A DNA stretch of 21,285 nucleotides, from assembly GCA_043819795.1 (NCBI GenBank), contig JBDREN010000192.1:1-21285 (forward strand), in the 5' to 3' direction. Below are positions 8,822 through 21,101 of this stretch, piece after piece. The notes beneath the pieces are model-generated. The model was not told the origin of the DNA. It was given only the letters and a program-made list of their open reading frames with translations, and made no database searches. Within the stretch, counting starts at the first letter, position 1, and the number at the start of each line of letters is the position of its first letter. Position numbers and translations under genes: made by a program. This DNA is from Elusimicrobiota bacterium. Its GTDB lineage: Bacteria > Elusimicrobiota > Elusimicrobia > UBA1565.

Positions 8822-8958
8822 CTTTCGTATCTCCTTGACCCCGTGTCCCCAGTCCACACGGAGGTGCTTTCCCTTGACGTATCCCTTCTTCCCGGGTTTC
8901 GGCTTGTCCATGATGTCCCGGAGGCGGGCCCGGGAGCGGGCCGCGCGCCTCCCCGTCA

Positions 8959-8988
8959 AGCATACCGCTATTGGGAGCCCCCCTGCAA
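8959..8988 (-). promoter_or_regulatory. Putative sigma70 promoter for DUF3467-esterase-MATE
   Basis: Minus strand TTGCAG-N18-TATGCT in the intergenic gap. Confidence 0.35.
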
Positions 8989-9004
8989 GTTCTGCCGGGA
9001 CGCG

Positions 9005-11032
9005 CTAACGGGCATCCAGGTCGCGCAGGTAGCGCGTGATATTCGGCTGGTCGGGGTCGATCTCCAGGGATCTCCGCCAGGCCTCGCGGGCGGCTTCGGT
9101 CTTCCCCATGCCGGCGTAGGCCGTCCCGAGGTTATTGTGGGCCTTGGTGAAGAACGGGTTCAAGGCCGCCGCCTCGCGCAGATGCTTCAAGCCGTCCTCC
9201 CATCGCTTCTGTCCGACGCAGATGGCGCCCAAGTTGTTGTGAGCATGGGCATTGAGGGGGTTCTCCTCGATCTCACGGAGGAACGCCTGTTCCGCTCTTC
9301 GCGGATCGCCCTTGGCCAAGAGCTCGTTGCCCCGGTGAAAATGGGCGGTCGGGGCGGACAGGCGCTTCAGCTCGAGCATGGCGTGACCGAACCGGGGATC
9401 GTAATGAAGCGTGGAATAGAAACAGGCCGAGGCTCTTCGGTATTCCTTACGGTTCCTGAGTCCGATGCCGTACGCGAAATAGAGGTTCGCGAGGTTCTCC
9501 CGGCGACCGGCGGCCTTCTCCAGGGCGATCCCTTCTTCATAGGTCTGCCAGGCGCGTCCGGGGCGGCTCTCTATCAGGAAGTTGCCCATGTTCACGTATT
9601 CCCGAGCGTAGAGGCGCGTCTCTTCAAACAGAGTCACGTGACAGCAGATGTAGACGCAGCCGAACAGCAGGCCGCGCCAAAGTGTGCTCCGCCAACGCTT
9701 CTCGCGGACTGTTCCGAACCCATCTGCCAGAGCATAGGCGGCGAAGGGAAGGAGGAAAGGGACCACGGGCAGCCGGTACCGAGATGTGACGTAAAAAAGC
9801 ACAACAGAAAGCGCGTAGCCGCCGGCGAGCAGATACAGCAGGAGCGCCTCCCGCCATCGCCTCCAGGACGCGGCCACGCCCCATACGGCGAGGGGCAGGA
9901 GCGCTCCGAACGTGAACAGAGGCCAGCGCAGCAACGGCACGAACCGATCCCGCAAGAAATAGGTGTTGTAGTTGTCCGGCACCTCGTAGTAATTGACGAA
10001 GAGATTGATCTTCTTCCCCAGGAGCCTGAAGAAACGGCCCGGCTCCCGCCGGATGAAATCGAATCCTTTCTTGTACCAGAACCGGCCGATCTCGGAGGGC
10101 TTGAGCGGGCGCCCGACCTCCTTCTCGGCGTAGACGCGCGCGTCCCGCTCTTCGTGCTCCGGGATGGTCCGTATCATCGGCGCCGCTGCGTGGATCCCGG
10201 AGGCTTTAGGGTTGTTGCCGGCATAGAAGTTGATTCCCGCCGTGTAATTGGTCAGTACGAAGTCTCGGTCGGCCCAGTAGTTGCGCGCCGTGACGGGCGC
10301 CACCGCGAAGGCGAAGCCCAGGAGGAACAATCCGCCCAGCCGGGCGGCGGACTTGATGTCCCGCGTCCGCGCCCAGAGCCACAGGGGGATGAAGGGAACG
10401 GCCAAGAGGAAGTTGCCGCGGTTGAGGGCCGCGAGCCCCAGGCAAGCCCCGCCCGCCAGCGCCCAGCGCGCGCTCGCGGGCTCCGGGGCCCGCAGCAGGC
10501 ACAAGAGGGTGAGCGCTTCCAGGAAGACGGTCGTGCTCCCTTTGAGCAGCACGGCGTCGTAGAAGATGAACGGCTGGTAGAGCGCCGCCAGGACGGCCGT
10601 CAGCCAGCCCGCGGTCTCGCCGAACACGCGTCTGCCCACGAAATAGAGCAGCACGCAGGAGAACGAGCCGAGCAGGACCTGGATCCACTGCACGGCCCGG
10701 AGGCTGTGCCCGAACACGGAATAGACCAGACCCAGGAAGTAGGGATAAAGGGGGGATTGATAGAAGGCTCCTTTGCCGAGCCAGTCCCCCTGCGCGATGG
10801 CCCAGCCCCAGCGGTCGTAGGCCGCCGCGTCGATGTGAAGATGATCCCCGAAGGGGCTCTGGTTGAATTGGTGAAGGAAGATGAGGCGCAGGACGAGCGC
10901 GGTCAAAAATACCCCGGCCAGCCCGAACGGACGAGGCCGGTCCAGCAGCGCCTGCCGCGCCGCGGAGAGCGGGGCCAGGAAGTCCAGCGCTTGGCCTTCC
11001 GAAACCGGCGCGCGTTTCCTTTTCGGCTTCAT
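9005..11032 (-). CDS. GT-C (ArnT/PMT-like) membrane glycosyltransferase with C-terminal TPRs, paralog 2
   Basis: IDAAAY loop, YQSPLYPYFLG, many TMs, ARNY..GINFY.GNNP, RYRLP and TPR motifs AHNNLG. The ATG overlaps the upstream TGA. Confidence 0.88.
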   Translation of the reverse strand: MKPKRKRAPVSEGQALDFLAPLSAARQALLDRPRPFGLAGVFLTALVLRLIFLHQFNQSPFGDHLHIDAAAYDRWGWAIAQGDWLGKGAFYQSPLYPYFLGLVYSVFGHSLRAVQWIQVLLGSFSCVLLYFVGRRVFGETAGWLTAVLAALYQPFIFYDAVLLKGSTTVFLEALTLLCLLRAPEPASARWALAGGACLGLAALNRGNFLLAVPFIPLWLWARTRDIKSAARLGGLFLLGFAFAVAPVTARNYWADRDFVLTNYTAGINFYAGNNPKASGIHAAAPMIRTIPEHEERDARVYAEKEVGRPLKPSEIGRFWYKKGFDFIRREPGRFFRLLGKKINLFVNYYEVPDNYNTYFLRDRFVPLLRWPLFTFGALLPLAVWGVAASWRRWREALLLYLLAGGYALSVVLFYVTSRYRLPVVPFLLPFAAYALADGFGTVREKRWRSTLWRGLLFGCVYICCHVTLFEETRLYAREYVNMGNFLIESRPGRAWQTYEEGIALEKAAGRRENLANLYFAYGIGLRNRKEYRRASACFYSTLHYDPRFGHAMLELKRLSAPTAHFHRGNELLAKGDPRRAEQAFLREIEENPLNAHAHNNLGAICVGQKRWEDGLKHLREAAALNPFFTKAHNNLGTAYAGMGKTEAAREAWRRSLEIDPDQPNITRYLRDLDAR

Positions 11033-13038
11033 CGGGCTTCGAGGTCCCGCAGGTACTGCGCGATCCTTGGCTGCTCCGGGTCGATCTCCAAAGACCTCCG
11101 CCATGCCTCGCGGGCGGCTTGGGGGCGCCCCATGCTGGCCTCGGCCATCCCGATATTGTTGTGGGCTTTGGTGAAGAACGGGTTCAAGGCCGCCGCCTCC
11201 CGGAAATACGGCAAGGCCTCCGCCCAGCGTCTCCGGCTGAAGTGGATGCTCCCGAGGTTGTTGTGCGCCTCGGGATTAAAGGGGTTCTCCTCGATCTCCC
11301 GGATGAACTCACCCTCCGCCGCCCGCGGATCCCCCCGCCCCAAGAGCTCGTTGCCCCGGTGGAAATGCGCGGTCGGACGCATCAGGCGCTGCAGCTCCAG
11401 GGCCGCGAAGGCGAACTCCGGGTAGTAATGCAGCGTGGAGAAAAAGCAGGCAACGGCCCTCTTGGCCTGCCCCTGGTTGCGGAGCCCTATGCCGTAGGCG
11501 TAGTAGAGCTCCGGAAGCATGTCCTTCCGGCGGGAGGCTTTCTCCAAAGCAATCGCCTCCTCGTAGGCCTTCCAGGCCCCTTCCGGGTCCGTCCCGAGCA
11601 GGTAGTTCCCCAAAGTCACGTACTCCCGGGAGTAGGCGAACGCCGGCTCGAACATGGGGATGCGGCATGACAGGAAGGCGGCTGTCACCAGCCCGGCGCG
11701 GAACGTCAGGCCCATCCAGCGCTTCCGTCGTAGGGTCTCGAACGCCTCCACCAGGGCGTAGCCGGCGAAGGGGAGCAGGAACGGGACCACGGGCAGCCGG
11801 TACCGGGAGGCGATGTGGAAGAGGACGACGGAGAACGCGTAGACGCCGGCGAGCAGATGCAGCAGGAGCGCCTCCCGCCATCGCCTCCATGAGACGGCCA
11901 TGCCCAAGACGGCCAGGGGCATGAGCACGCCGAACGGGACCAGGGGCCAGCGCAGCAGCGGCACGAACCGGTCGCGCAGGAAGTAGATGTTGTAGTTGTC
12001 GGGCACCTCGTAGTGGTTGAAGAACAGCTTGATCTTCCGCCACGCGCGACGGAGGAAGAGGTCCGGCCGCTCGCGGATGGACCGCCAGCCCTTCGCGCGC
12101 CAGAAACGGTCGATCTCGGAGGGCATGAGCGTGCGTCCGGCCTCCTTCTCGGCGGACGCGCGCGCGTCCGCTTCCTCGTGCTCCGGGACCGTCCGGATCA
12201 GGGGCGGAGCCCAGTGGATCCCGGTGGCTCCGGGATGGTTGTCCGAGTAGAAGTTCACCCCGGCCGCGTAGGTGATGGGGACGAAGTCGCGGGCGGCCCA
12301 GTAGTTGCGCGCCGTGACGGGAGCGACCGCGAGCGCGAAGCCCAGAAGGAACGAGCCGCCCAGCCGGCCGGCGGACTTGGCGTCCCGGGTCCGCGCCCAG
12401 AGCCAGAGGGGGATGAAAGGGACGGCGAGCAGGAAGTTCCCGCGGTTGAGCGCCGCGATCCCCAGGCACGCCCCGGCCGCAAGGGCCCAGCGCGCGCGCG
12501 GAGGCTCCAGAGCGCGCAGCAGGCACAGGAGCGTCAGAGCCTCCAGGAAGATGGTCGTGCTTCCTTTCAGCAGCAGGCCGTCGTAGAAGATGAACGGCTG
12601 GTAGAGCGCCGCCAGGACGGCCGTCAGCCAGCCCGCGGCCTCGCCGAACACGCGTCTGGCCACGAAATAGAACAGCACGCAGGAGAACGACCCGATGAGG
12701 ACCTGGATCCACTGTACGGCCCGCAGGCTGTGCCCGAATACGGAATAGACGAGGCCCAGGAAGTAGGGGTAGAGGGGGGATTGATAGAAGGCTCCTTTGC
12801 CGAGCCAATCGCCCTGCGCGATGGCCCAGCCCCACCGGTCGTAGGCCGCCGCGTCGATGTGAAGATGATGCCCGAAGGGGCTTTGGTTGAACTGGTGAAG
12901 GAAGATGAGGCGCAGGACGAGAGCGGCGAGGAATATCCCCGCCAGCCCGAGCGGACGAGGCCGGTCCAGCAGCGCCCGCCGCGCCGCGGAGAGCCGCGGC
13001 AGGGCGCCCGGCTTAGCGATCTTCGGCTCAGGAGCCAT
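11029..13038 (-). CDS. GT-C (ArnT/PMT-like) membrane glycosyltransferase with C-terminal TPRs, paralog 1
   Basis: Same motif set as 9005-11032, with long identical peptide blocks. Confidence 0.88.
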   Translation of the reverse strand: MAPEPKIAKPGALPRLSAARRALLDRPRPLGLAGIFLAALVLRLIFLHQFNQSPFGHHLHIDAAAYDRWGWAIAQGDWLGKGAFYQSPLYPYFLGLVYSVFGHSLRAVQWIQVLIGSFSCVLFYFVARRVFGEAAGWLTAVLAALYQPFIFYDGLLLKGSTTIFLEALTLLCLLRALEPPRARWALAAGACLGIAALNRGNFLLAVPFIPLWLWARTRDAKSAGRLGGSFLLGFALAVAPVTARNYWAARDFVPITYAAGVNFYSDNHPGATGIHWAPPLIRTVPEHEEADARASAEKEAGRTLMPSEIDRFWRAKGWRSIRERPDLFLRRAWRKIKLFFNHYEVPDNYNIYFLRDRFVPLLRWPLVPFGVLMPLAVLGMAVSWRRWREALLLHLLAGVYAFSVVLFHIASRYRLPVVPFLLPFAGYALVEAFETLRRKRWMGLTFRAGLVTAAFLSCRIPMFEPAFAYSREYVTLGNYLLGTDPEGAWKAYEEAIALEKASRRKDMLPELYYAYGIGLRNQGQAKRAVACFFSTLHYYPEFAFAALELQRLMRPTAHFHRGNELLGRGDPRAAEGEFIREIEENPFNPEAHNNLGSIHFSRRRWAEALPYFREAAALNPFFTKAHNNIGMAEASMGRPQAAREAWRRSLEIDPEQPRIAQYLRDLEAR

Positions 13039-13059: not shown

Positions 13060-13638
13060 TCAACGAGGTCTCCCCGCGTTCCAGTTCTCGAGGACGCAGG
13101 GGTAGGACACCTCGACACGACGCGCGAATCGTCCACGGAGGAAGCGGTCCAGGCGGTCCTTGTCGGGATCGAGCGCCAGCAGGGCTTCCCCGAGCCTGGG
13201 CGAGAGGAGGACGGGGTGCCCCCCTTTGCCATCGTGGACGGGGATGATGGCCTCGACGCCCGCCTCGTCGGCTTCGCGCGCGCGGGTGAGGAGGTCCCTG
13301 AAGAGGGTTCCCTCCCAGACCGGCATGTCCACGTGGTGGAGGCACCCCCACTTCGTTAGAGGAGCCGCCTTGAGGGCCGCCTGGAGGGCGTGGAGGGGGG
13401 ATGCTCCCGGATCCACCGGCACCCACCTCACCCCCGGATCGACGCCGCGGCAGCGCTCCAGCCAGGCCTCCTGGACCGTGACCGCGACGGCCCCGGGCGC
13501 GAAGAGGCCCGTCAGGAACGCGACCTGTCTGCCCAGGAGGGTGCCGTCCTCGTGGGCGATCCACGCTTTGGGTCCCCCGGCCCTCTTGCCTTTGCCGGCG
13601 GCGAGCAGATAGGCCTGAGCCTCGTCCATCGGTTTCAC
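13060..13638 (-). CDS. mocA: MocA/YgfJ-like molybdenum cofactor cytidylyltransferase (MobA-like NTP transferase)
   Basis: Motifs LLAAGKGKRAGGPKA, VDMP and GKGGHPVLL, plus association with xdhC. Start is GTG 13638 or ATG 13629. Confidence 0.75.
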   Translation of the reverse strand: MKPMDEAQAYLLAAGKGKRAGGPKAWIAHEDGTLLGRQVAFLTGLFAPGAVAVTVQEAWLERCRGVDPGVRWVPVDPGASPLHALQAALKAAPLTKWGCLHHVDMPVWEGTLFRDLLTRAREADEAGVEAIIPVHDGKGGHPVLLSPRLGEALLALDPDKDRLDRFLRGRFARRVEVSYPCVLENWNAGRPR

Positions 13639-13749
13639 TGCGATCCCTTTACAGGGTTTAGGTCCCGGCCTCTACATTGCAGTCTTCGTTCATTACGTTG
13701 TCGTCAGTCCGTCACAATCCCTTTTCAGGGTTTCGGTCCGTCCCTTCCC
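13637..13749 (-). CRISPR. Degenerate CRISPR mini-array: two 39-nt repeats (13711-13749, 13637-13675) and one 35-nt spacer (13676-13710)
   Basis: R1 GGGAAGGGACGGACCGAAACCCTGAAAAGGGATTGTGAC and R2 GTAGAGGCCGGGACCTAAACCCTGTAAAGGGATCGCAGT are 26/39 identical, with a 21/23 core. Both have a CCCT-GNRA-AGGG hairpin followed by exactly 8 nt (ATTGTGAC in R1). The spacer is GGACTGACGACAACGTAATGAACGAAGACTGCAAT (16/35 GC). The array lies directly at the end of cas6. Confidence 0.8.
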
Positions 13750-14539
13750 CGGCGAACACGCGCACCTGCCCCATGCCCATTCCGGTCTTGATGCCCACGC
13801 CGGCCGCGGACGCCAGTCCAAGGAGCCTGCGCGCCGAGTCCTTCTTGGAGGCGTCGGCCAGGCTGATCCACGCGCAGCCCACGAACCCGGGGATCTCCCC
13901 CGCTTTGAGCCGGAAAAGCTTCGTTCGTCCCCTGAACCGGACGAGGCGCAGGGCGCGGCGCCAGTCGTCGGCGGTCAGCTCCGGAAGCTGGTCCGGGGAG
14001 AAGGCGTTCCAGCGCCGGTTCAGGCTGGAGAGCACCAGGCCCGGGTCGCAGAAGGGATAATAGGCGTCCCCCATCTTGAAGGCGGTGGGCGTCCGGAAAT
14101 CCAGGCGATAGACGGAGCGCGCGGGAGCGAGAAGCGAGGGGTCCGAGTAATCGGACACGCGGTAGAGTCCGGGAGCCTTGCGTCCCGTGGGCAGGACCGC
14201 GGCGATCTCGAGCCGGCCACGACCCAGGAGCACCCCTTTTTTCTCGGCCATGTGCACGGCGAGCGACGTGGAGAGGCATCTCGTCAGCGGAGCCGAGAGC
14301 GTGCCCACGGTGAGCCGCAGGCTCTCTCCCCGCTTGAGCACGGCGCCGTCCCGGCTCGGAGACTTCCCGTGGACCCATAGCGAGAAGGGCTTGATGCCCG
14401 CCGAATGGATGGACGACGCCAGAGCCCGGTCTTCGGATTGGATGAGGCGGAAGAGCAGGCCGTGCGCGGCTTCTCCCGCATGGGCGGGGACGTCCACGCG
14501 GTCCAGGGCCTTCAGAGTGACGGAGAAGAGTCCGATCAT
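13712..14539 (-). CDS. cas6: CRISPR-associated endoribonuclease Cas6
   Basis: Motifs HGLLFRLI..IH..KPFS, FRTPTAF, SL..RWNAF, PGFVG and C-terminal G-loop GVGIKTGMGMG. The ATG overlaps the csm5 TGA. Confidence 0.92.
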   Translation of the reverse strand: MIGLFSVTLKALDRVDVPAHAGEAAHGLLFRLIQSEDRALASSIHSAGIKPFSLWVHGKSPSRDGAVLKRGESLRLTVGTLSAPLTRCLSTSLAVHMAEKKGVLLGRGRLEIAAVLPTGRKAPGLYRVSDYSDPSLLAPARSVYRLDFRTPTAFKMGDAYYPFCDPGLVLSSLNRRWNAFSPDQLPELTADDWRRALRLVRFRGRTKLFRLKAGEIPGFVGCAWISLADASKKDSARRLLGLASAAGVGIKTGMGMGQVRVFAGEGTDRNPEKGL

Positions 14540-15516
14540 GACGCGGCGGGCTTCAGATACGCCCAGCCCAGGGGCCTCACTCCCGCCTTCTTGCGCGTCC
14601 ACGGAGGGTCGGCGCAGGTTATGTTGTGAAAACCTCCGAGCCTCGATACGGAGTATTCCTTGCGGCCGAGGGCCTTCGCGGCCGCCAAGAGCGACATGGC
14701 CCACGCGCCGGAGCCCTGGCCGAGGCGGATCGGACCGGATTGGGCCGAGACATGCATGGGCTCACCCTCCGCCCGGCAGATCTCCTGGGCGTACTCCCGG
14801 GCCCAGGCCAGCATGGACTCGAAGAAGTCCCCGCGCACGGATCTCGGGACCTTGATGTCCAGGTTGAAAGTGACGCCCGGCTTGATCACCTCCATGAGCG
14901 TGTGCGCCGCCTTGAGGGGGCCCTTGCCGGGCCTGGCGTCGGGCGACCTTTCGACCCTGACGATCGCGAGCGCGAGCGTCTTGTCCGCGGGCCGTCCGTC
15001 CGTGTCGGAGACGTCCAGCCAGCGCAGGGACCCGTCCCGCTCCGGCTTCCCGCCCAGCCACGCGGCCACCCTGTCCCGGAGCTCCCTGTCGTTGGCCGGC
15101 CATTGGATCCGTCCGGTCTTCAAGAGCCCGTAGGCCACGACGCCGAGCAAGGCGCCCTTGATGGATGAGCCGGGCACGACCGTCTTACCCGCGGATCTGA
15201 ACGCTTCACTGACCGTGATCCTGTCCGGCTCTTGGCGGGCGGTCTGGTCCACGGGCAGGGTGTAGAGGATGTGCCTGCGGGCGATGGCCTCGAGCTCCTT
15301 GTGGCCGCCGAGGTGCCGGGCCTCGGGCTTGGCCTTCCCGGCCAGCGACATGAAATCGTCGAACGCGCGGCTCTCCGGCTTGAAATCCTCGTCCTGGAAC
15401 AGGCCGTCCATGTGCAGCCTATGGAACGTTCCCCTGTCCAGGAGGTATTCCATGGGCGTGATCTCCCGGCCGGAGCCGATATGGACGAACGAATGAGTCG
15501 TCAAGGTGAGCTTCAT
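14536..15516 (-). CDS. csm5: Type III-A RAMP Csm5
   Basis: Motifs VHIGSG...EY, PGSSIKGA, VSD and RLGQGSG, and position after csm4. Confidence 0.88.
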   Translation of the reverse strand: MKLTLTTHSFVHIGSGREITPMEYLLDRGTFHRLHMDGLFQDEDFKPESRAFDDFMSLAGKAKPEARHLGGHKELEAIARRHILYTLPVDQTARQEPDRITVSEAFRSAGKTVVPGSSIKGALLGVVAYGLLKTGRIQWPANDRELRDRVAAWLGGKPERDGSLRWLDVSDTDGRPADKTLALAIVRVERSPDARPGKGPLKAAHTLMEVIKPGVTFNLDIKVPRSVRGDFFESMLAWAREYAQEICRAEGEPMHVSAQSGPIRLGQGSGAWAMSLLAAAKALGRKEYSVSRLGGFHNITCADPPWTRKKAGVRPLGWAYLKPAAS

Positions 15517-16451
15517 GACTCCGGGGGGATGCGGATCGGCAGACTGAGCGCCATGCCGGCGCGAAAGACCTTGTGCGCTTTCTTGAAGGCCCCGGGCGTC
15601 ACCTCCACGAGAGAGCCGGAGACGTCATCGACTCCGGCGAGGACCGCGCCTTCGGCGGCCATGCGGACGGGCCGCCACCTCAGGGGGATTCCGGCGTCCG
15701 GCGAGTGGATGTACCCCCGGCGGTCGACCAGCCTGTAGTACCCGTCGGCCAGGCGTTCGGCCTCGGTCTGGCTTCCGGGGTAGTAAAGAGAGAGGAGGAC
15801 CCGGTGGCTCGGCTCTCGGACCTCCCGGCCGAGCTCGAGCGTCTCCCAGGCCGGATACTTGAAAAGTCCGTGACCCACGGATCGCTCCCCGCCGATGCCT
15901 TCATCCGCCAATAGGCGCATGGCCGAGAATATACGGTCCCGGACCTTCTTGTCCTCGAACCGCGCGAGGAAATAGAACCCGCCGTCCGGAGGAGGACATA
16001 TCCTGCCCACGCCGAAGAGGCCGCCCGCGCTCCGCTGCCGGCCGTCTCCCGCGCGGCCCACGCTCGCCCTGGTCGCGTGATGGAGCCAATGGTCCAGACG
16101 TCTTTTCTCCACGTGATCGCCGTTGCGAGTCTCGCCCGAAAGGACCTTTTCGAAGGAGCGCAGCGTGAGCCAGCTGCGGTTGTCGGCCGAGACGTGCCTT
16201 GGGCACGGGAAGAAGAGGTCCGCGCCTTCATAGGGAAACGCCGAGGTCAGGGCGAACGGCCTCTCGCCTTTCTCGAGCCGCCGCAAGAGGATCACGAGCG
16301 AGCCTTCCCCGTACAGGAGCCTCCAGGCGGCGAAGACGGCCGCGCAGAGGGTGTCGGACGGGATATGCCCCATGCTCTCGTCGAGCATGTCCTGGCGCTC
16401 GCCCACATGGAGGGCGCCCCGGAAGGCCAGCCGGCAGAGGTTTAGCTCCAT
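15513..16451 (-). CDS. csm4: Type III-A RAMP Csm4
   Basis: Motifs LHVGE, SDTL..A, TSAFPY, LADEGIGGERSVGHG, LLSLYYP, RRGYI and EG..GSLVEVTP. TGATG overlap with csm3. Confidence 0.92.
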   Translation of the reverse strand: MELNLCRLAFRGALHVGERQDMLDESMGHIPSDTLCAAVFAAWRLLYGEGSLVILLRRLEKGERPFALTSAFPYEGADLFFPCPRHVSADNRSWLTLRSFEKVLSGETRNGDHVEKRRLDHWLHHATRASVGRAGDGRQRSAGGLFGVGRICPPPDGGFYFLARFEDKKVRDRIFSAMRLLADEGIGGERSVGHGLFKYPAWETLELGREVREPSHRVLLSLYYPGSQTEAERLADGYYRLVDRRGYIHSPDAGIPLRWRPVRMAAEGAVLAGVDDVSGSLVEVTPGAFKKAHKVFRAGMALSLPIRIPPES

Positions 16452-17230
16452 CAAGCGAGTCTGTTGAGCACCTGCTCCATGCCGGACACGAGCTTCTGAG
16501 GGGTGTCCAGGCCCTCGTTGACGGGAGGCTTTCCCAAGCTTCCCTTCTGGTAGTCCTCGGCTGAGTTCCAGCGCAGGGCCAGCGCGCCGACCTTGACCCT
16601 GCCGTACCCGCGAGAGCCCATGCCTCCCAGGTAGTCGTCTTCAAGCAGAGACAGCGCCTTGAAGATCTTCGGCACGAGCTCCGGCTTGTCCTCATCCGAG
16701 TAGACATTGAGCACCAGGCGCAGGCCGAACCTGGCTCCCGCCGGGACCCTTTCCACCTGCCTCAAGCCGCCGGAACGCGCCTTGCCTTGGACGCGGTCTA
16801 TCGCGGTCTCCGCCTTGACCTCGGTGAGCTCCAGCTCCAGGTTGCCGGCCTCGTGCAGCTGCTTGAGCTCCGCCTCGTTCAAGAGATAGGCGTCCGAGAC
16901 CATGAGCCGGGTCAAAGAGGGCACGTTGAACTCCGCGCCGCCCGGGGCCACGCCGAAGATCCGGCAGGAGGGGCACTTCCGGTAAGATGCGGAGTCCCGG
17001 CATTCATGCTTCCCGCCTTCGAACCGGCAGTCCTCCGAGTGCTCCAGGAGGCTCCTCAGCTTGCCCTTGATGGACGAGCCGGGGACGTAGGGCTTTCCCC
17101 ACGGGTCGCGTATGACGCTCAGGTCCACGCCGCTGATCTTCAAGCCCGTCTGGGGACCGCCCACGCGGATGCCGGTCTTGGCCTCGATCTCGCCTTCGAT
17201 GATCAGCTTCCCCAATAGTCGGCACTCCAT
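16451..17230 (-). CDS. csm3: Type III-A backbone RNase Csm3
   Basis: TGIRVGG...ISGVDLSVIRD with the catalytic Asp position retained, PYVPGSSIKGKLRSLLE, His/Cys Zn cluster HEC..CPSC, ETAIDR, RQVERVPAG and DDYLGGMGSRGYG. SD GGAGGAG. Confidence 0.96.
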   Translation of the reverse strand: MECRLLGKLIIEGEIEAKTGIRVGGPQTGLKISGVDLSVIRDPWGKPYVPGSSIKGKLRSLLEHSEDCRFEGGKHECRDSASYRKCPSCRIFGVAPGGAEFNVPSLTRLMVSDAYLLNEAELKQLHEAGNLELELTEVKAETAIDRVQGKARSGGLRQVERVPAGARFGLRLVLNVYSDEDKPELVPKIFKALSLLEDDYLGGMGSRGYGRVKVGALALRWNSAEDYQKGSLGKPPVNEGLDTPQKLVSGMEQVLNRLA

Positions 17231-17231
17231 T

Positions 17232-17774
17232 TCAGTCTCCTCCGTGGTAGCGGTGGTAGGCCACGATCGCTTCGACCAGGTCCTTCAACCCCTTGAAGTA
17301 GCCCGGATTCTTAGCGGTCCTCTGGAGCGCGATATCCAGATGACGCTGGAAGAATCTCACGGCCGGGCCGTGCCTGCCCGCGGCGTAGGCCAGCTTGGGC
17401 CTCAAGAGATGCAGCTTGTTGGGACTATGCGCCTTCATCCTTTGGATCTCGTCGAGCACGGCCCTGACCTGGGAGGTGCTCATGTTCATCCGCTGCAGCT
17501 GCTTGCCGATCTTGTCCGCCACCTCCACGATCTTCTGGGCGTTGCCCCGGAGGCAGAGGTCGATGTCCTGGAAGCTTGCCGCGAGCTGCGGCTCGCCCGG
17601 CGTGCCGCCGGGCTGGGACGGTCTCCCGTATCCTCCGCCGTGCTGAGGCGGTTTGCCGCCTCCGCCGCCGTGCTGGGACGGTTTCCCGTATCCGCCGCCG
17701 TGCTGAGGCGGTCTGCCGCCCCCGCCGCCGTGGTACGGCGGCTTGCCGCCTTTTCCGTGCCTTCCATCAGGCAT
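17232..17774 (-). CDS. csm2: Type III-A small subunit Csm2 with N-terminal Gly/Pro/His repeat extension
   Basis: Motifs STSQVR, LHLLRPKLAYAAGR and EAIVAYHRYHGG. SD AGGGAGG upstream of ATG 17774, which follows the cas10 stop by 3 nt. Confidence 0.93.
   Translation of the reverse strand: MPDGRHGKGGKPPYHGGGGGRPPQHGGGYGKPSQHGGGGGKPPQHGGGYGRPSQPGGTPGEPQLAASFQDIDLCLRGNAQKIVEVADKIGKQLQRMNMSTSQVRAVLDEIQRMKAHSPNKLHLLRPKLAYAAGRHGPAVRFFQRHLDIALQRTAKNPGYFKGLKDLVEAIVAYHRYHGGD
17605..17750 (-). repeat. About five 30-bp coding tandem repeats (alternating, 60-bp higher-order unit) in csm2
   Basis: Units start at 17611, 17641, 17671, 17701 and 17731, and encode GKPPYHGGGG/GRPPQHGGGY/GKPSQHGGGG/GKPPQHGGGY/GRPSQPGGTP. 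Confidence 0.9.
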
Positions 17775-17777
17775 GGT

Positions 17778-20195
17778 TCAGCCCTCCCTGCTCGTCGAAT
17801 AGCCCGCCCATCGGGCCATGAGTCCGAGATGGGGGACCAAGCCCGTGTCGGACGGCATCACGGTCTTCCGTAAAGCCTCCAGCTGGTGTTTGCGCTTCCT
17901 GTTCCGCTCTTTCATTCCGGCGAAAGCGTAGACCAGGCGCCAGATGCGGAATACCTCGGCCTGGCCGTCCTGGACCTTGAGCCTTTCATGCTCGGCCCGT
18001 CCGAGCGCCGTCAGAAGCGACCTCGGCACGGGGTCCTGTCCGTCCTCGGGCGCGACAAGCGCCTCCATGGCACGGGACACTTCCCGGCATTCGGCCAGCT
18101 CGTCCCAGGATAAGACCTCTTCCAGAAACGAGACCGCGTCCTTGCCTTCCCGCGCCTTGGCTTTCTCGAGAGCCTCGCACGCGGCCAGGGCCGCGATCCT
18201 GACGGGGAAACCCGTCGTCGGCGCCAGGAAGATGCCGGCAGAGAGCGTGAGCCGGCCGCTCGTGAGATCGCGGAGATCCTGCCTGAGCCTCGCGGCGATG
18301 ACGGGCAAGTCGCTCCAAGGGCCTAGCAGGAAGGCGTCGTCGCCGCCGGAATAGACCACGTGGGCGTGAGGAAACTCGCTCCAGAGCAGGTATTCGATCC
18401 TGGCCGTGAAGAACCAGTGGATGAGCGCGCTCAAGGTGGCGAAGCGGGAGATGGACGGACGCTCGATGCCTCGCTTGAGAGAGCTTTCCAGGTCGTCCAC
18501 GTCCAGCTTCAAGGCGCCCCATTTCTTGACCCCTTGGGCGCGGGCCGCGGTCTTGTCCAGGCTCAGCACGCCCCGATGGTCGTCGCGCGGCGCGTATCGG
18601 GCTATGAGCGCGGCCGGCCCGACCCAGTCCTCCCGGAAGCCGGCCTGGTTCACGGCCGTCTCGCCGCCGCTCAAGTCCAGCTCAAGGCCGAGCTTCTTGA
18701 GAGAACCGGCGAGCCCCGGGGCGGGAGTCCCGGAGCCCCTTGACGCGACGGGCCGGATGGAGATCGAGTCGGCTCCGTTGAGGGCCGAGGCCGCTTTTTC
18801 GAAGCCGGAGCACAGGACGCACTCCTGGCGAGGGTCGCCCGTGTCGGAGCCGCAGACGCGGCAGGGCCGGACTTTCTCTTCCACATCGTCCGGGCCGAGC
18901 AGCACCCTCCGGCGCCTGAAGTCCCTCAGGAGGGCCGAGCCCATCCTGGCCTTCTCGCGCGCCATGGGCGGGCCGAGGCGGCCCAGAGGCCCCTTGAAAG
19001 CGTCGCCGATGAATTCCGCGGCTTTTACGGGGGTCCAGGCCAGGCTGACTCCCAGGCGGTCGCGGTGCAGGCGCATGAGCGAGGTCTCGACCTCGTCGCG
19101 CGCGCGCTCCAGGGTCTCCCCGACGCCCGCGCTCCACGGGGCCAGGAGCATGAAATGCCCGCCGCCCATGAAGAGCACGTTCACGCAAGGCAGCGGCGGA
19201 TCGAATGAGCGAAGCACCCTTTCGGCCGCGGCCATGCAGAGCATGTCCAGATAGAAAGACCGGCCGCGAAGCCCCTTTATCGCGCCCTCGCCGCCCACCG
19301 AGAAGAGGAAGTCCTGGATGCCGGAAAGATCGCCTTTCACCAGGGCGGCCACCTCGACGGCCGTCTGGGTCCCGACAGCGGGCCTGCGGCGCGAAGGGAT
19401 GTGGTCGATGATGTCGTCGAGCTCCCCGGTGGAGAAGCCCCCGTCCAGGAGGCATGCGGCGAGCGCGGCCGTGAGGCGGAGATGGTGGTAGAGCGATACG
19501 TCGGGCATGTCGATGGCCGAGGAAGGCACGAAAAGCGCGTGCCGCTCGAGGGCTCGTAGAAGCGAGCGGGTGAGGAGGTCGAAGTCCCGGGAGACCGAAG
19601 GCGCCCGGGCCAGCGCTTCCAGGTCGGCCTTCAATCCGCTCCAGAGCACGCCGTAGCTCTCCTTCCCCGCCAGGGATTTCTCCTTGGAGTCCGCGGGCCA
19701 ATGCCGGGCCGGATCGAACTGCATGGCCATGAGCGGGAAGAAGGCCGGCTGAAGCTCGGCCGCGTCCTTGAACAGCGCGAAGGGGGAAACGAGCGGCTCG
19801 GTGCGGGACTCTCCCGGCGGGTCCTCCTCGGGCCTTTCCCTCCTTTCGCCCGAAGCCAGCCAGTCGGCCAGGACCAGGCACCGCACCAGCCGCCGGTCGC
19901 CTTCGGCCTCGCCGCAATTGTGGTGCCAGGCCGCCAAGTCCGCGGCGGCGGGGAAGCTCGACCCGAAGGCCGTCCGGATGAGGTGCTCGGTCCAGAGCGC
20001 GTGGCGGTGGGTCGGGTGGCGGCCCGCGGGGTCCCGGGGACAGAAAAGGGACTCCCGCCCGCTCGCCGAGGGATCGAGGGGGGCCGCTGCCCGCTGCCCG
20101 ATCTTCCCGGCGTCGTGCAGAAGCGCCGCCAGGATCAGGGAGTCCCGGTCTCGGGGCGCGGACGGCGCCGAGGCATCGCCGGACTGTTCGCTCAC
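17778..20195 (-). CDS. cas10: Type III-A Cas10/Csm1 with HD nuclease and Palm cyclase domains
   Basis: HD motifs ALLHDAGK, WHH and ADWLASGER. Palm1 motifs GDLSGIQDFLF, LRGRSFYL and GGGHF. Zn finger CRVC..CVLC. Palm2 motifs LKLDVDDL and YSGGDD. The GTG start overlaps the xdhC TGA. Confidence 0.97.
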   Translation of the reverse strand: MSEQSGDASAPSAPRDRDSLILAALLHDAGKIGQRAAAPLDPSASGRESLFCPRDPAGRHPTHRHALWTEHLIRTAFGSSFPAAADLAAWHHNCGEAEGDRRLVRCLVLADWLASGERRERPEEDPPGESRTEPLVSPFALFKDAAELQPAFFPLMAMQFDPARHWPADSKEKSLAGKESYGVLWSGLKADLEALARAPSVSRDFDLLTRSLLRALERHALFVPSSAIDMPDVSLYHHLRLTAALAACLLDGGFSTGELDDIIDHIPSRRRPAVGTQTAVEVAALVKGDLSGIQDFLFSVGGEGAIKGLRGRSFYLDMLCMAAAERVLRSFDPPLPCVNVLFMGGGHFMLLAPWSAGVGETLERARDEVETSLMRLHRDRLGVSLAWTPVKAAEFIGDAFKGPLGRLGPPMAREKARMGSALLRDFRRRRVLLGPDDVEEKVRPCRVCGSDTGDPRQECVLCSGFEKAASALNGADSISIRPVASRGSGTPAPGLAGSLKKLGLELDLSGGETAVNQAGFREDWVGPAALIARYAPRDDHRGVLSLDKTAARAQGVKKWGALKLDVDDLESSLKRGIERPSISRFATLSALIHWFFTARIEYLLWSEFPHAHVVYSGGDDAFLLGPWSDLPVIAARLRQDLRDLTSGRLTLSAGIFLAPTTGFPVRIAALAACEALEKAKAREGKDAVSFLEEVLSWDELAECREVSRAMEALVAPEDGQDPVPRSLLTALGRAEHERLKVQDGQAEVFRIWRLVYAFAGMKERNRKRKHQLEALRKTVMPSDTGLVPHLGLMARWAGYSTSREG

Positions 20196-21010
20196 CGTCT
20201 CCCCGCCGCGGGCGCGATGGGCTCGGCGGTCGTCCGAAGGCCCCATTCCTGAAGGAGCTCCGCGGCGACCGCCACCGCGATGATCTTCGGATCCTTGCTG
20301 GGCAAGGGCAGGCCGATGGGGCAGTGCATCTTCTCGTCCCAAAGCCGGTCCCAGTCCTCCGGCCCTTCGGAGAGCTCTTTGAGCTTGGCGCGGAAGGTCC
20401 GGCTCTTGTTCTGGGAGCCGATCACCCCGAGATAGCCCACCGGCTGCTTGAGGAAATGCCTGGCGAGCGGGAAATCCAGCTTATGGTCGTGGGTGAAGAC
20501 GCAGACGGCGTCGTCGGCGGTCCACCGGCGGGCCTCCGCGTATTCCACGGGGTCCACGCAGTGAGGCTCGACGTCGGCGGGCAGGCCCTCGCGGGAGGCC
20601 CACTCGGGCCGCTGGTCGATCACATGCACGTCGAACGGCATGCCGGAGAGGACCTGGGCCGTCGCGCGGCCGACGTGGCCTCCGCCGAAGAGATGGACGG
20701 CCTTGCGCCGCGGCACCGGCTCGAAGAAGACCTCCACGCGCCCCCCGCAGACCTGGCCTTCCTCCTTGGTGAGGTCGTAGTCCTCGATGTGCGGCTTGCC
20801 GTCCGCGTCTTTGAGCAGCTCCCGGGCGTGCTCCAGGACCTTCTTCTCGAGCGCCCCGCCGCCCACCGTCCCGTAGAACCGGTCCGATGTCGCCCACATG
20901 CGCGCGCCGACCCGCTGGGGCGCGCTTCCGGCGATCCTGACGACCGTGCACATCACCGCCGGGCGCGGCAGGTCCTTGTCGAAATCCCCGATGGTCTTGG
21001 AAGTCTCCAT
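20192..21010 (-). CDS. xdhC: XdhC/CoxI-family xanthine dehydrogenase accessory (Moco maturation) protein
   Basis: Motifs GSAPQRVGARM, GTVGGGALE, QVCGG, LFGGGHVG, THDHKLD, YLGVIGS, CPIGL and KDPKIIAVAVAAELL. SD GGGAGG. Confidence 0.93.
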   Translation of the reverse strand: METSKTIGDFDKDLPRPAVMCTVVRIAGSAPQRVGARMWATSDRFYGTVGGGALEKKVLEHARELLKDADGKPHIEDYDLTKEEGQVCGGRVEVFFEPVPRRKAVHLFGGGHVGRATAQVLSGMPFDVHVIDQRPEWASREGLPADVEPHCVDPVEYAEARRWTADDAVCVFTHDHKLDFPLARHFLKQPVGYLGVIGSQNKSRTFRAKLKELSEGPEDWDRLWDEKMHCPIGLPLPSKDPKIIAVAVAAELLQEWGLRTTAEPIAPAAGRR

Positions 21011-21014
21011 GCGG

Positions 21015-21092
21015 TCAACCTCCCACGATCAGGCCGAGCATGAGGAGCAGCGCCCCGGCGTTAAGCATCGGCAGGTCGGGCATCGCGCTCAT
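21015..21092 (-). CDS. Candidate 22-25 aa hydrophobic peptide MSAMPDLPMLNAGALLLMLGLIVGG
   Basis: Open frame from ATG 21092 (or 21083) to TGA 21015-21017. Its last codons form the xdhC SD. Confidence 0.35.
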   Translation of the reverse strand: MSAMPDLPMLNAGALLLMLGLIVGG

Positions 21093-21101
21093 TGTACTAT
21101 A
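21091..21101 (-). promoter_or_regulatory. Putative -10 element(s) for the xdhC-csm-mocA operon
   Basis: Overlapping TATAGT/TACAAT in the only AT-rich patch upstream of xdhC. No convincing -35. Confidence 0.4.

Follow-up and report, generated by a model that had tools for sequence, protein, structure and literature searches.

A type III-A CRISPR-Cas cassette lies between the host genes xdhC and mocA of an Elusimicrobiota bacterium, and the last repeat of its two-repeat mini-array overlaps the translation start of mocA. On balance, the overlap is taken to be an accident of insertion with a passive polar effect on mocA. The arrangement of repeat and mocA start is a singleton among the genomes searched. 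The window, i.e., the whole stretch of DNA analysed (21,285 nt), is a whole contig (JBDREN010000192.1) of a 4.99-Mb assembly (GCA_043819795.1) that has a G+C content of 67% and is 90% complete. On the minus strand follow, in this order, xdhC, cas10, csm2, csm3, csm4, csm5, cas6, the two-repeat mini-array, a MocA-like gene and two PMT_2/TPR glycosyltransferase-like genes (Table 1). The cas cassette (cas10-csm2-5-cas6) has a length of 6.5 kb. The gene order, the GTGA at both junctions, the repeat anatomy, the intact MocA and the lack of a promoter-like box before mocA are direct observations. Rfam gave no matches within the window.

Table 1. Features of the window in the order in which they occur on the minus strand
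Feature	Position	Strand	Evidence or remark
Two overlapping -10-like hexamers, TATAGT and TACAAT	21091..21101	-	upstream of xdhC
xdhC, host molybdenum-cofactor chaperone	20192..21010	-	TIGR02964 185 bits (cut-off 162); Pfam XdhC
Left junction GTGA (xdhC TGA stop / cas10 GTG start)	20192..20195	-	
cas10/csm1, HD and GGDD motifs	17778..20195	-	TIGR02578 472 bits
csm2	17232..17774	-	TIGR01870
csm3	16451..17230	-	TIGR02582
csm4	15513..16454	-	TIGR01903
csm5	14536..15516	-	TIGR01899 34 bits (cut-off 38), slightly under, but in place
cas6	13712..14539	-	PF10040 above cut-off; TIGR01877 54 bits (cut-off 59)
Repeat 1, 37 nt, hairpin 13730-13719, canonical-type handle	13711..13747	-	limits set from G036 repeat
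Single spacer, 37 nt, 46% GC in a 67% GC genome	13674..13710	-	
Repeat 2, last repeat, hairpin 13656-13645	13637..13673	-	holds AAGGGA 13649-13644
Right junction GTGA, likely ancestral mocA start	13635..13638	-	
MocA-like NTP transferase, start GTG 13638 or ATG 13629	13060..13638	-	PF12804
PMT_2 + TPR glycosyltransferase-like gene 1	11029..13038	-	own SD-like word
PMT_2 + TPR glycosyltransferase-like gene 2, overlaps gene 1	9005..11104	-	tandem paralogue

The two host genes that flank the cassette are neighbours in many relatives. Going by match coordinates, mocA immediately follows xdhC in 20 of the 40 relatives. Full-length xdhC with at least 48% identity adjoins mocA in 19 of 20 genomes, and 0.9 kb separate the genes in the remaining one. 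Among 19 mocA loci examined, 11 have an adjacent xdhC, one has a gap between the genes and seven have no xdhC in the locus. In seven of the 11 adjacent pairs (two read from the sequence ends) the stop and start codons overlap as RTGA. An XdhC chaperone adjoining a MobA/MocA-like nucleotidyltransferase is also known as a cofactor maturation pair (PMC2997495); here the pair is split by the 6.5-kb cas cassette. The cassette itself is rare. Its cas10 was found in none of the 40 relatives, a csm3 relative occurs in 12 of 400 genomes of the phylum (none in the family or order among the matches listed) and a Cas6 relative in one of 100 genomes of the order. At least six metagenome loci are related to Cas6 (26-32% identity), with no CRISPR array seen in these, and three Csm3-related loci were found in genomes.

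The simplest reading of these data is insertion of the cassette at the ancestral overlap. The 6.5-kb cassette likely entered at the GTGA stop/start overlap of xdhC and mocA, to judge from the sequence at its ends: GTGA occurs at both junctions, as xdhC stop and cas10 start on the left and at the GTG of mocA on the right. A match of four letters is weak evidence; as GTGA is only 4 nt long and is also present in the handle of repeat 1, the right-hand GTGA could be repeat-derived. Insertion machinery is not visible. The worn last repeat touches the mocA start because the cassette sits in the ancestral xdhC/mocA junction. Under insertion, cas10 would have inherited the SD of xdhC (-6.7 kcal/mol). 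If accidental, the locus is a snapshot of a defence cassette that seemingly landed on a start/stop overlap and took over both the promoter of the host and its translational coupling, a matter of modest interest. A misassembly, by which a cas contig of foreign origin would have been placed within the operon of the host, is highly improbable. The arrangement is known from one assembly only, and no bridging contig is among the matches listed from three DNA runs, but both junctions lie exactly at the ancestral stop/start overlap with all frames open, the GC3 of the cas genes (0.83-0.89) agrees with that of the host genes (0.82-0.92), and run X1, which may be the source sample, holds near-identical pieces of host and cas genes.

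Some minor observations concern the cassette and its left end. The HD motif of Cas10 is located at residue 26, as compared to residues 10-20 in 20 homologs, and the N-terminus is at least 6 residues longer. An out-of-frame ATG-CCT (20176-20135, minus strand) precedes the LIL motif of cas10 by 38 nt, and the start of the nearest Cas10 homolog, also Met-Pro, precedes this motif by 39 nt. Speculatively, cas10 of the cassette may originally have started at this ATG-CCT, with the GTG of the host taking its place later. Low-depth pieces in run X2, a marine metagenome, are about 92-97% identical to cas6, csm5, csm4 and cas10 (14077-19906). All eight of the eight longest pieces among the matches listed fall in cas genes, and the confinement of the X2 pieces to the cassette is a weak hint of mobility.

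The effector module is of type III-A, with csm2, csm3, csm4, csm5 and a cas10 that carries the HD and GGDD motifs. Cas6 keeps the conserved His26 and the G-rich loop in the alignment. Genes for cas1, cas2, the Csm6-type family PF09670 and Csx1 were not found in the assembly, in searches whose positive controls were detected; three further searches for cOA effectors, including SAVED and NucC, gave no match, with controls that were silent too. No other array of the same repeat was found in the assembly by pattern search or by a naive array scan. A complete adaptive type III-A system, with cas1/cas2 and a multi-spacer array, was not found in this assembly; as it is 90% complete, the cas genes and arrays not seen may yet exist outside it. 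The last 11 codons and the stop codon of cas6 are located inside repeat 1, with the stop in the repeat 1 handle, and the Cas6 proteins nearest to it (53-55% identical) are 8 residues shorter at this end. The run of cas6 into repeat 1, together with the shorter relatives, suggests a deletion by which cas6 became fused with an array's tail. The lack of cas1, cas2, Csm6-type and Csx1 genes and of a further array, and the run of cas6 into repeat 1, count as signs of decay. On the other hand, the catalytic motifs are intact and the cas genes seem to be maintained. Without selection, about one quarter of codon changes would be silent. In the comparison of the cas genes with the low-depth X2 contigs, 18 of 33 changed codons are silent; the count used 38 of 40 listed differences (the best 40 of 135), two being dropped as located outside the cas genes or absent from X2. 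Because of this silent excess the cassette is not simply dead.

The mini-array could conceivably act as a regulatory crRNA-like guide of the CreR/CreA type for the Csm complex, with the mocA overlap being incidental, but this is very unlikely. Two diverged repeats with one spacer beside cas6 are as expected for such a guide, as are the intact first handle with only a hairpin in the second repeat and the maintained state of the cas genes. Against it, the best self match of the spacer in the genome is 24/35, within the range of 22-25 obtained with 15 shuffles, and the longest exact match elsewhere in the genome is 14 nt, with none at the cas promoter region. A target of the spacer was not found in viral contigs (exact and back-translated patterns), in phages (best E 2) or in plasmids (best E 5). 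The crlRNAs of type I systems are likewise formed from two diverged repeats that are processed by Cas6 into one guide, as stated in passages of 10.1101/2023.03.03.530964; here the system is of type III, no cas or toxin promoter is partly matched by the spacer, and conservation was not seen among the genomes searched. The same passages report no such role found for type III mini-arrays, which Shmakov et al. (10.1101/2023.03.03.530964) judged to be degraded repeats with neither a conserved position nor a target. The present mini-array resembles those in its two repeat-like copies and one spacer, its place beside a type III operon, its absence from the relatives searched and its lack of a target; it differs in being the only array found, with repeat 1 inside cas6 and repeat 2 on a host start codon. 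The spacer without target and the mini-array fit the type III mini-arrays judged degraded. According to the part of that source which describes the scan, only repeats that do not overlap ORFs were kept, so a case like this one would be skipped.

The exact repeat pattern matched nothing in public genome contigs or in viral contigs. For this reason, the repeat of G036, a genome of the same order whose adjoining Cas6 is 35% identical, was used as a stand-in for the cassette consensus. A search with two mismatches allowed in 400 genomes of the phylum found an array in G036 alone; 30 other genomes had one or two isolated matches, which were treated as chance, and the only one of these whose region was inspected (G147) had no array or cas match there. 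In the array of G036, 15 repeats of 37 nt are intact; they share the stem, and their handle reads ATTGAGAC. Repeat 1 is identical to the G036 repeat in 26 of 37 positions, repeat 2 in 18 of 37. The mini-array belongs to a type III family of 37-nt hairpin repeats with a 4-bp stem, an 8-nt ATTG-N-GAC handle and a spacer of repeat length; repeat 1 has stem and handle, repeat 2 has the stem only. The handles read ATTGTGAC in repeat 1 and ATCGCAGT in repeat 2. Repeat 1 and all 15 intact G036 repeats also contain the word AAGGGA, which therefore belongs to the repeat family as such and is no adaptation of repeat 2.

As the handle of the last repeat enters no crRNA, it is free to drift. Wear at the 3' end of the last repeat is seen in both comparison arrays, over the 3' half in G036 and in the handle in the type III-A array of G047. 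Terminal repeats mutate more than internal ones (21 vs 6 per 1000 nt in III-A), and III-A is named among the subtypes with frequent degenerate repeats, according to passages of PMC12839519. The mutated last repeat described there resembles repeat 2, and those passages contain no overlap with a downstream gene. Since worn last repeats are usual and AAGGGA is built in, neither feature indicates a switch, and the combination of intact hairpin and worn handle needs no regulatory explanation.

Both comparison loci show features of their own. In G047 (L066 about 8860-9880, minus strand) most repeats carry a palindromic, REP/MITE-like insert of about 30 nt in the middle, which some copies lack; this is unusual for CRISPR. 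The first repeat of this array begins at the csm6 stop codon without a leader (L066 9878-9880, minus strand), so that G047 provides the phylum with another example, the second, of a cas operon whose end is fused to an array. The type III locus of G036 (L065 3478-15234) consists of RAMP genes, two unassigned genes, cas6, cas1, cas2 and the 15-spacer array, followed by a gene for a CHAT-like protease (read from sequence alone).

Repeats 1 and 2 are 37 nt long each, are spaced at 74 nt and are identical in 25 of 37 positions, with 21 matches in the central 23 nt. Their 17-nt core occurs twice in the window (13717-13733 and 13643-13659; never in 100 shuffles), and no further copy is present in the 4.99-Mb assembly at 0-1 mismatches. 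The minus-strand sequence quoted in the preliminary description is exact, and its anatomy of repeat 2, an intact hairpin with a worn 8-nt handle, agrees with our analysis. The stem of repeat 2 consists of 4 bp (CCCT 13656-13653 with AGGG 13648-13645) around a 4-nt loop, and the last 2 nt of the repeat are the GT of the host junction. An entire repeat folds no better than shuffled sequences (z 0.54), so that it is the comparison within the repeat family, not energy, that backs the proposed hairpin. As described before, AAGGGA is the only SD-like word; four of its six nucleotides belong to the 3' arm, and 5 nt separate its end from GTG 13638. In the folded ensemble its three G are unpaired at 1-19%; the SD is thus mostly paired in the precursor. 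The best anti-SD duplex 5' of either mocA start is formed by this element (-5.3/-5.0 kcal/mol), scored with the usual anti-SD sequence; the 3' end of the 16S was not found in the assembly.

Cas6 would likely cut both repeats, as 21 of the central 23 nt are shared between them and the enzyme retains both His26 and the G-rich loop. The predicted cut site in repeat 2, 13645/13644, is placed by the rule of an 8-nt handle. It is possible, but not probable, that the junction is accidental and that Cas6 cuts repeat 2 poorly or leaves it uncut, in which case AAGGGA would be the constitutive ribosome-binding site of GTG 13638. The 5-nt spacing between SD and GTG is inside the usual range of the genome, the anti-SD duplex (-5.3 kcal/mol) is about as strong as the isolated repeat 2 hairpin (-4.6 kcal/mol), repeat 2 is the more diverged of the two repeats when compared to G036, and MocA is intact. 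The strong match between the two repeats around the hairpin speaks against this explanation, as do the mostly paired SD and the protein start, because translation from GTG would give an N-terminus as long as the longer ones among the homologs.

By comparison with homologs, ATG 13629, which shares its frame with GTG 13638, is the better fit to homolog length. It precedes the LLAA motif by 7 codons, the commonest value (6 of 19 loci), and GTG 13638 by 10 codons (2 of 19 loci). The public gene call, a prediction only, also uses ATG 13629, which is located 14 nt from AAGGGA. In a noisy survey of 462 of 2090 crude ORFs with guessed starts, 46% of the 462 starts had an SD duplex of -4 kcal/mol or lower, so SD-free initiation looks common; the genome-wide spacing between SD and start peaked at about 5-10 nt. 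The gene product is named a MocA-like NTP_transf_3 protein on the basis of PF12804 and the xdhC context, with a TIGR03310 MocA score of 31 bits that is below the cut-off of 186. It keeps 39 of 41 residues that are invariant in 10 relatives, with a mean identity of 0.54 (range among the relatives 0.48-0.56). The gene is single-copy at high score in the genome, which also encodes three members of the xanthine-oxidase family as candidate MocA clients. An intact, single-copy MocA with candidate clients is probably needed by the cell.

The preliminary description had looked to an independent mocA promoter as counter-evidence; consensus scans found none. No TAnnnT box is present in 13627-13800, and the consensus promoter scan was also blank there, so mocA likely depends on read-through. 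In three relatives with a detached mocA (L007, L012, L019) a -10-like box is located 6-7 nt before the ATG, which means that the signal is detectable where present and suggests that these detached transcripts are leaderless. With no such box before it, the mocA of the window is exposed to whatever happens at repeat 2. The two overlapping hexamers upstream of xdhC are the candidate promoter of the entire xdhC-cas-mocA transcript; they are absent from the output of a stricter consensus promoter scan. At the contig end (21146-21285) a 46-nt GC-rich palindromic repeat, REP-like, is present three times.

The reading to which we incline is that a type III-A cassette came to lie between ancestral neighbours, that repeat 2 reached the mocA start by position, not by selection, and that Cas6 would passively strip the SD. 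A single transcript would run from upstream of xdhC. cas10 would have gained the SD and the coupling of xdhC, and mocA would have lost both. Cas6 would cleave at 13719/13718 and 13645/13644, giving one crRNA and an RNA with mocA and both glycosyltransferase genes that would start at 13644 without an SD. The output of MocA would be lower and fixed; its translation would begin at ATG 13629 with no SD, or at GTG 13638 where the RNA is uncut, and the glycosyltransferases would be translated from their own initiation signals. As the cell probably needs MocA, the effect on mocA may be tolerated or conceivably even used.

A Cas6-controlled switch had been proposed in the preliminary description: binding or cleavage by Cas6 at repeat 2 would block or remove the ribosome-binding site, set the output of MocA and the downstream genes and so link their expression to crRNA processing. 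The geometry fits, and removal of the SD by the predicted Cas6 cut is plausible, but a selected switch is regarded as distinctly unlikely. It is favoured by the SD in the 3' arm and the predicted cut between SD and start, by the lack of a promoter-like box before mocA and by the in-frame start 4-10 nt downstream, which is expected by chance in about 7% of cases; engineered Csy4 sites, moreover, reshape 5' UTRs, according to passages of PMC8601185. However, each feature follows from the repeat family, the last position and the insertion site, and the arrangement was seen once among the genomes searched, so the tie between mocA expression and crRNA processing was not upheld as an evolved switch. 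As cas6 and mocA would share one transcript, there is no evident input that varies Cas6 independently and would make this a switch. A broader version, in which the host mRNA is naturally processed by Cas6, is also unlikely. In this version the first cut would provide feedback on cas6, because cleavage at the stem base of repeat 1 leaves a cas6 mRNA without a stop codon, with negative feedback via nonstop-mRNA rescue; the second cut would remove the ribosome-binding site of mocA, and the level of Cas6 would set molybdopterin-dinucleotide synthesis. The cassette would be retained because it carries the transcription and the ribosome-binding site of mocA.

The closest known kinds, by comparison, are the degraded type III mini-arrays and worn terminal repeats mentioned above; the closest mechanism is engineered 5' processing by Csy4. 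In passages of PMC8601185 and PMC13478208 on Csy4/Cas6f, a Cas6 hairpin near the ribosome-binding site of an mRNA likewise alters the translation context. Those systems are synthetic, and the insulator cut upstream of the ribosome-binding site keeps that site, whereas here the predicted cut downstream removes it. Among titles and beginnings of abstracts outside the subscription journals, no description was found of a natural Cas6 cut at a host ribosome-binding site or of self-cleavage by cas6. If it were true that Cas6 tunes MocA, the engineered processing of mRNA by Csy4 would have a counterpart in nature in this locus, which would link CRISPR RNA maturation to cofactor metabolism.

The preliminary description had extended the tie with crRNA processing to both glycosyltransferase-like genes, and this part is not supported. 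Gene 1 has its own SD-like word (-5.0 kcal/mol), similar in strength to the AAGGGA element, so that translation of gene 1 would be independent of repeat 2, and detachment of the RNA by itself would not silence the glycosyltransferase genes. In G003 other genes, not glycosyltransferases, follow mocA. The two glycosyltransferase-like genes (9005-13038, minus strand) form a tandem duplication with a spacing of 2024 nt and an identity of 77-82% in 300-nt blocks. A further internal repetition is seen in Csm2 (17604-17753, minus strand), whose N-terminal low-complexity extension consists of 10-residue Gly/His/Pro repeats with a 30-nt unit.
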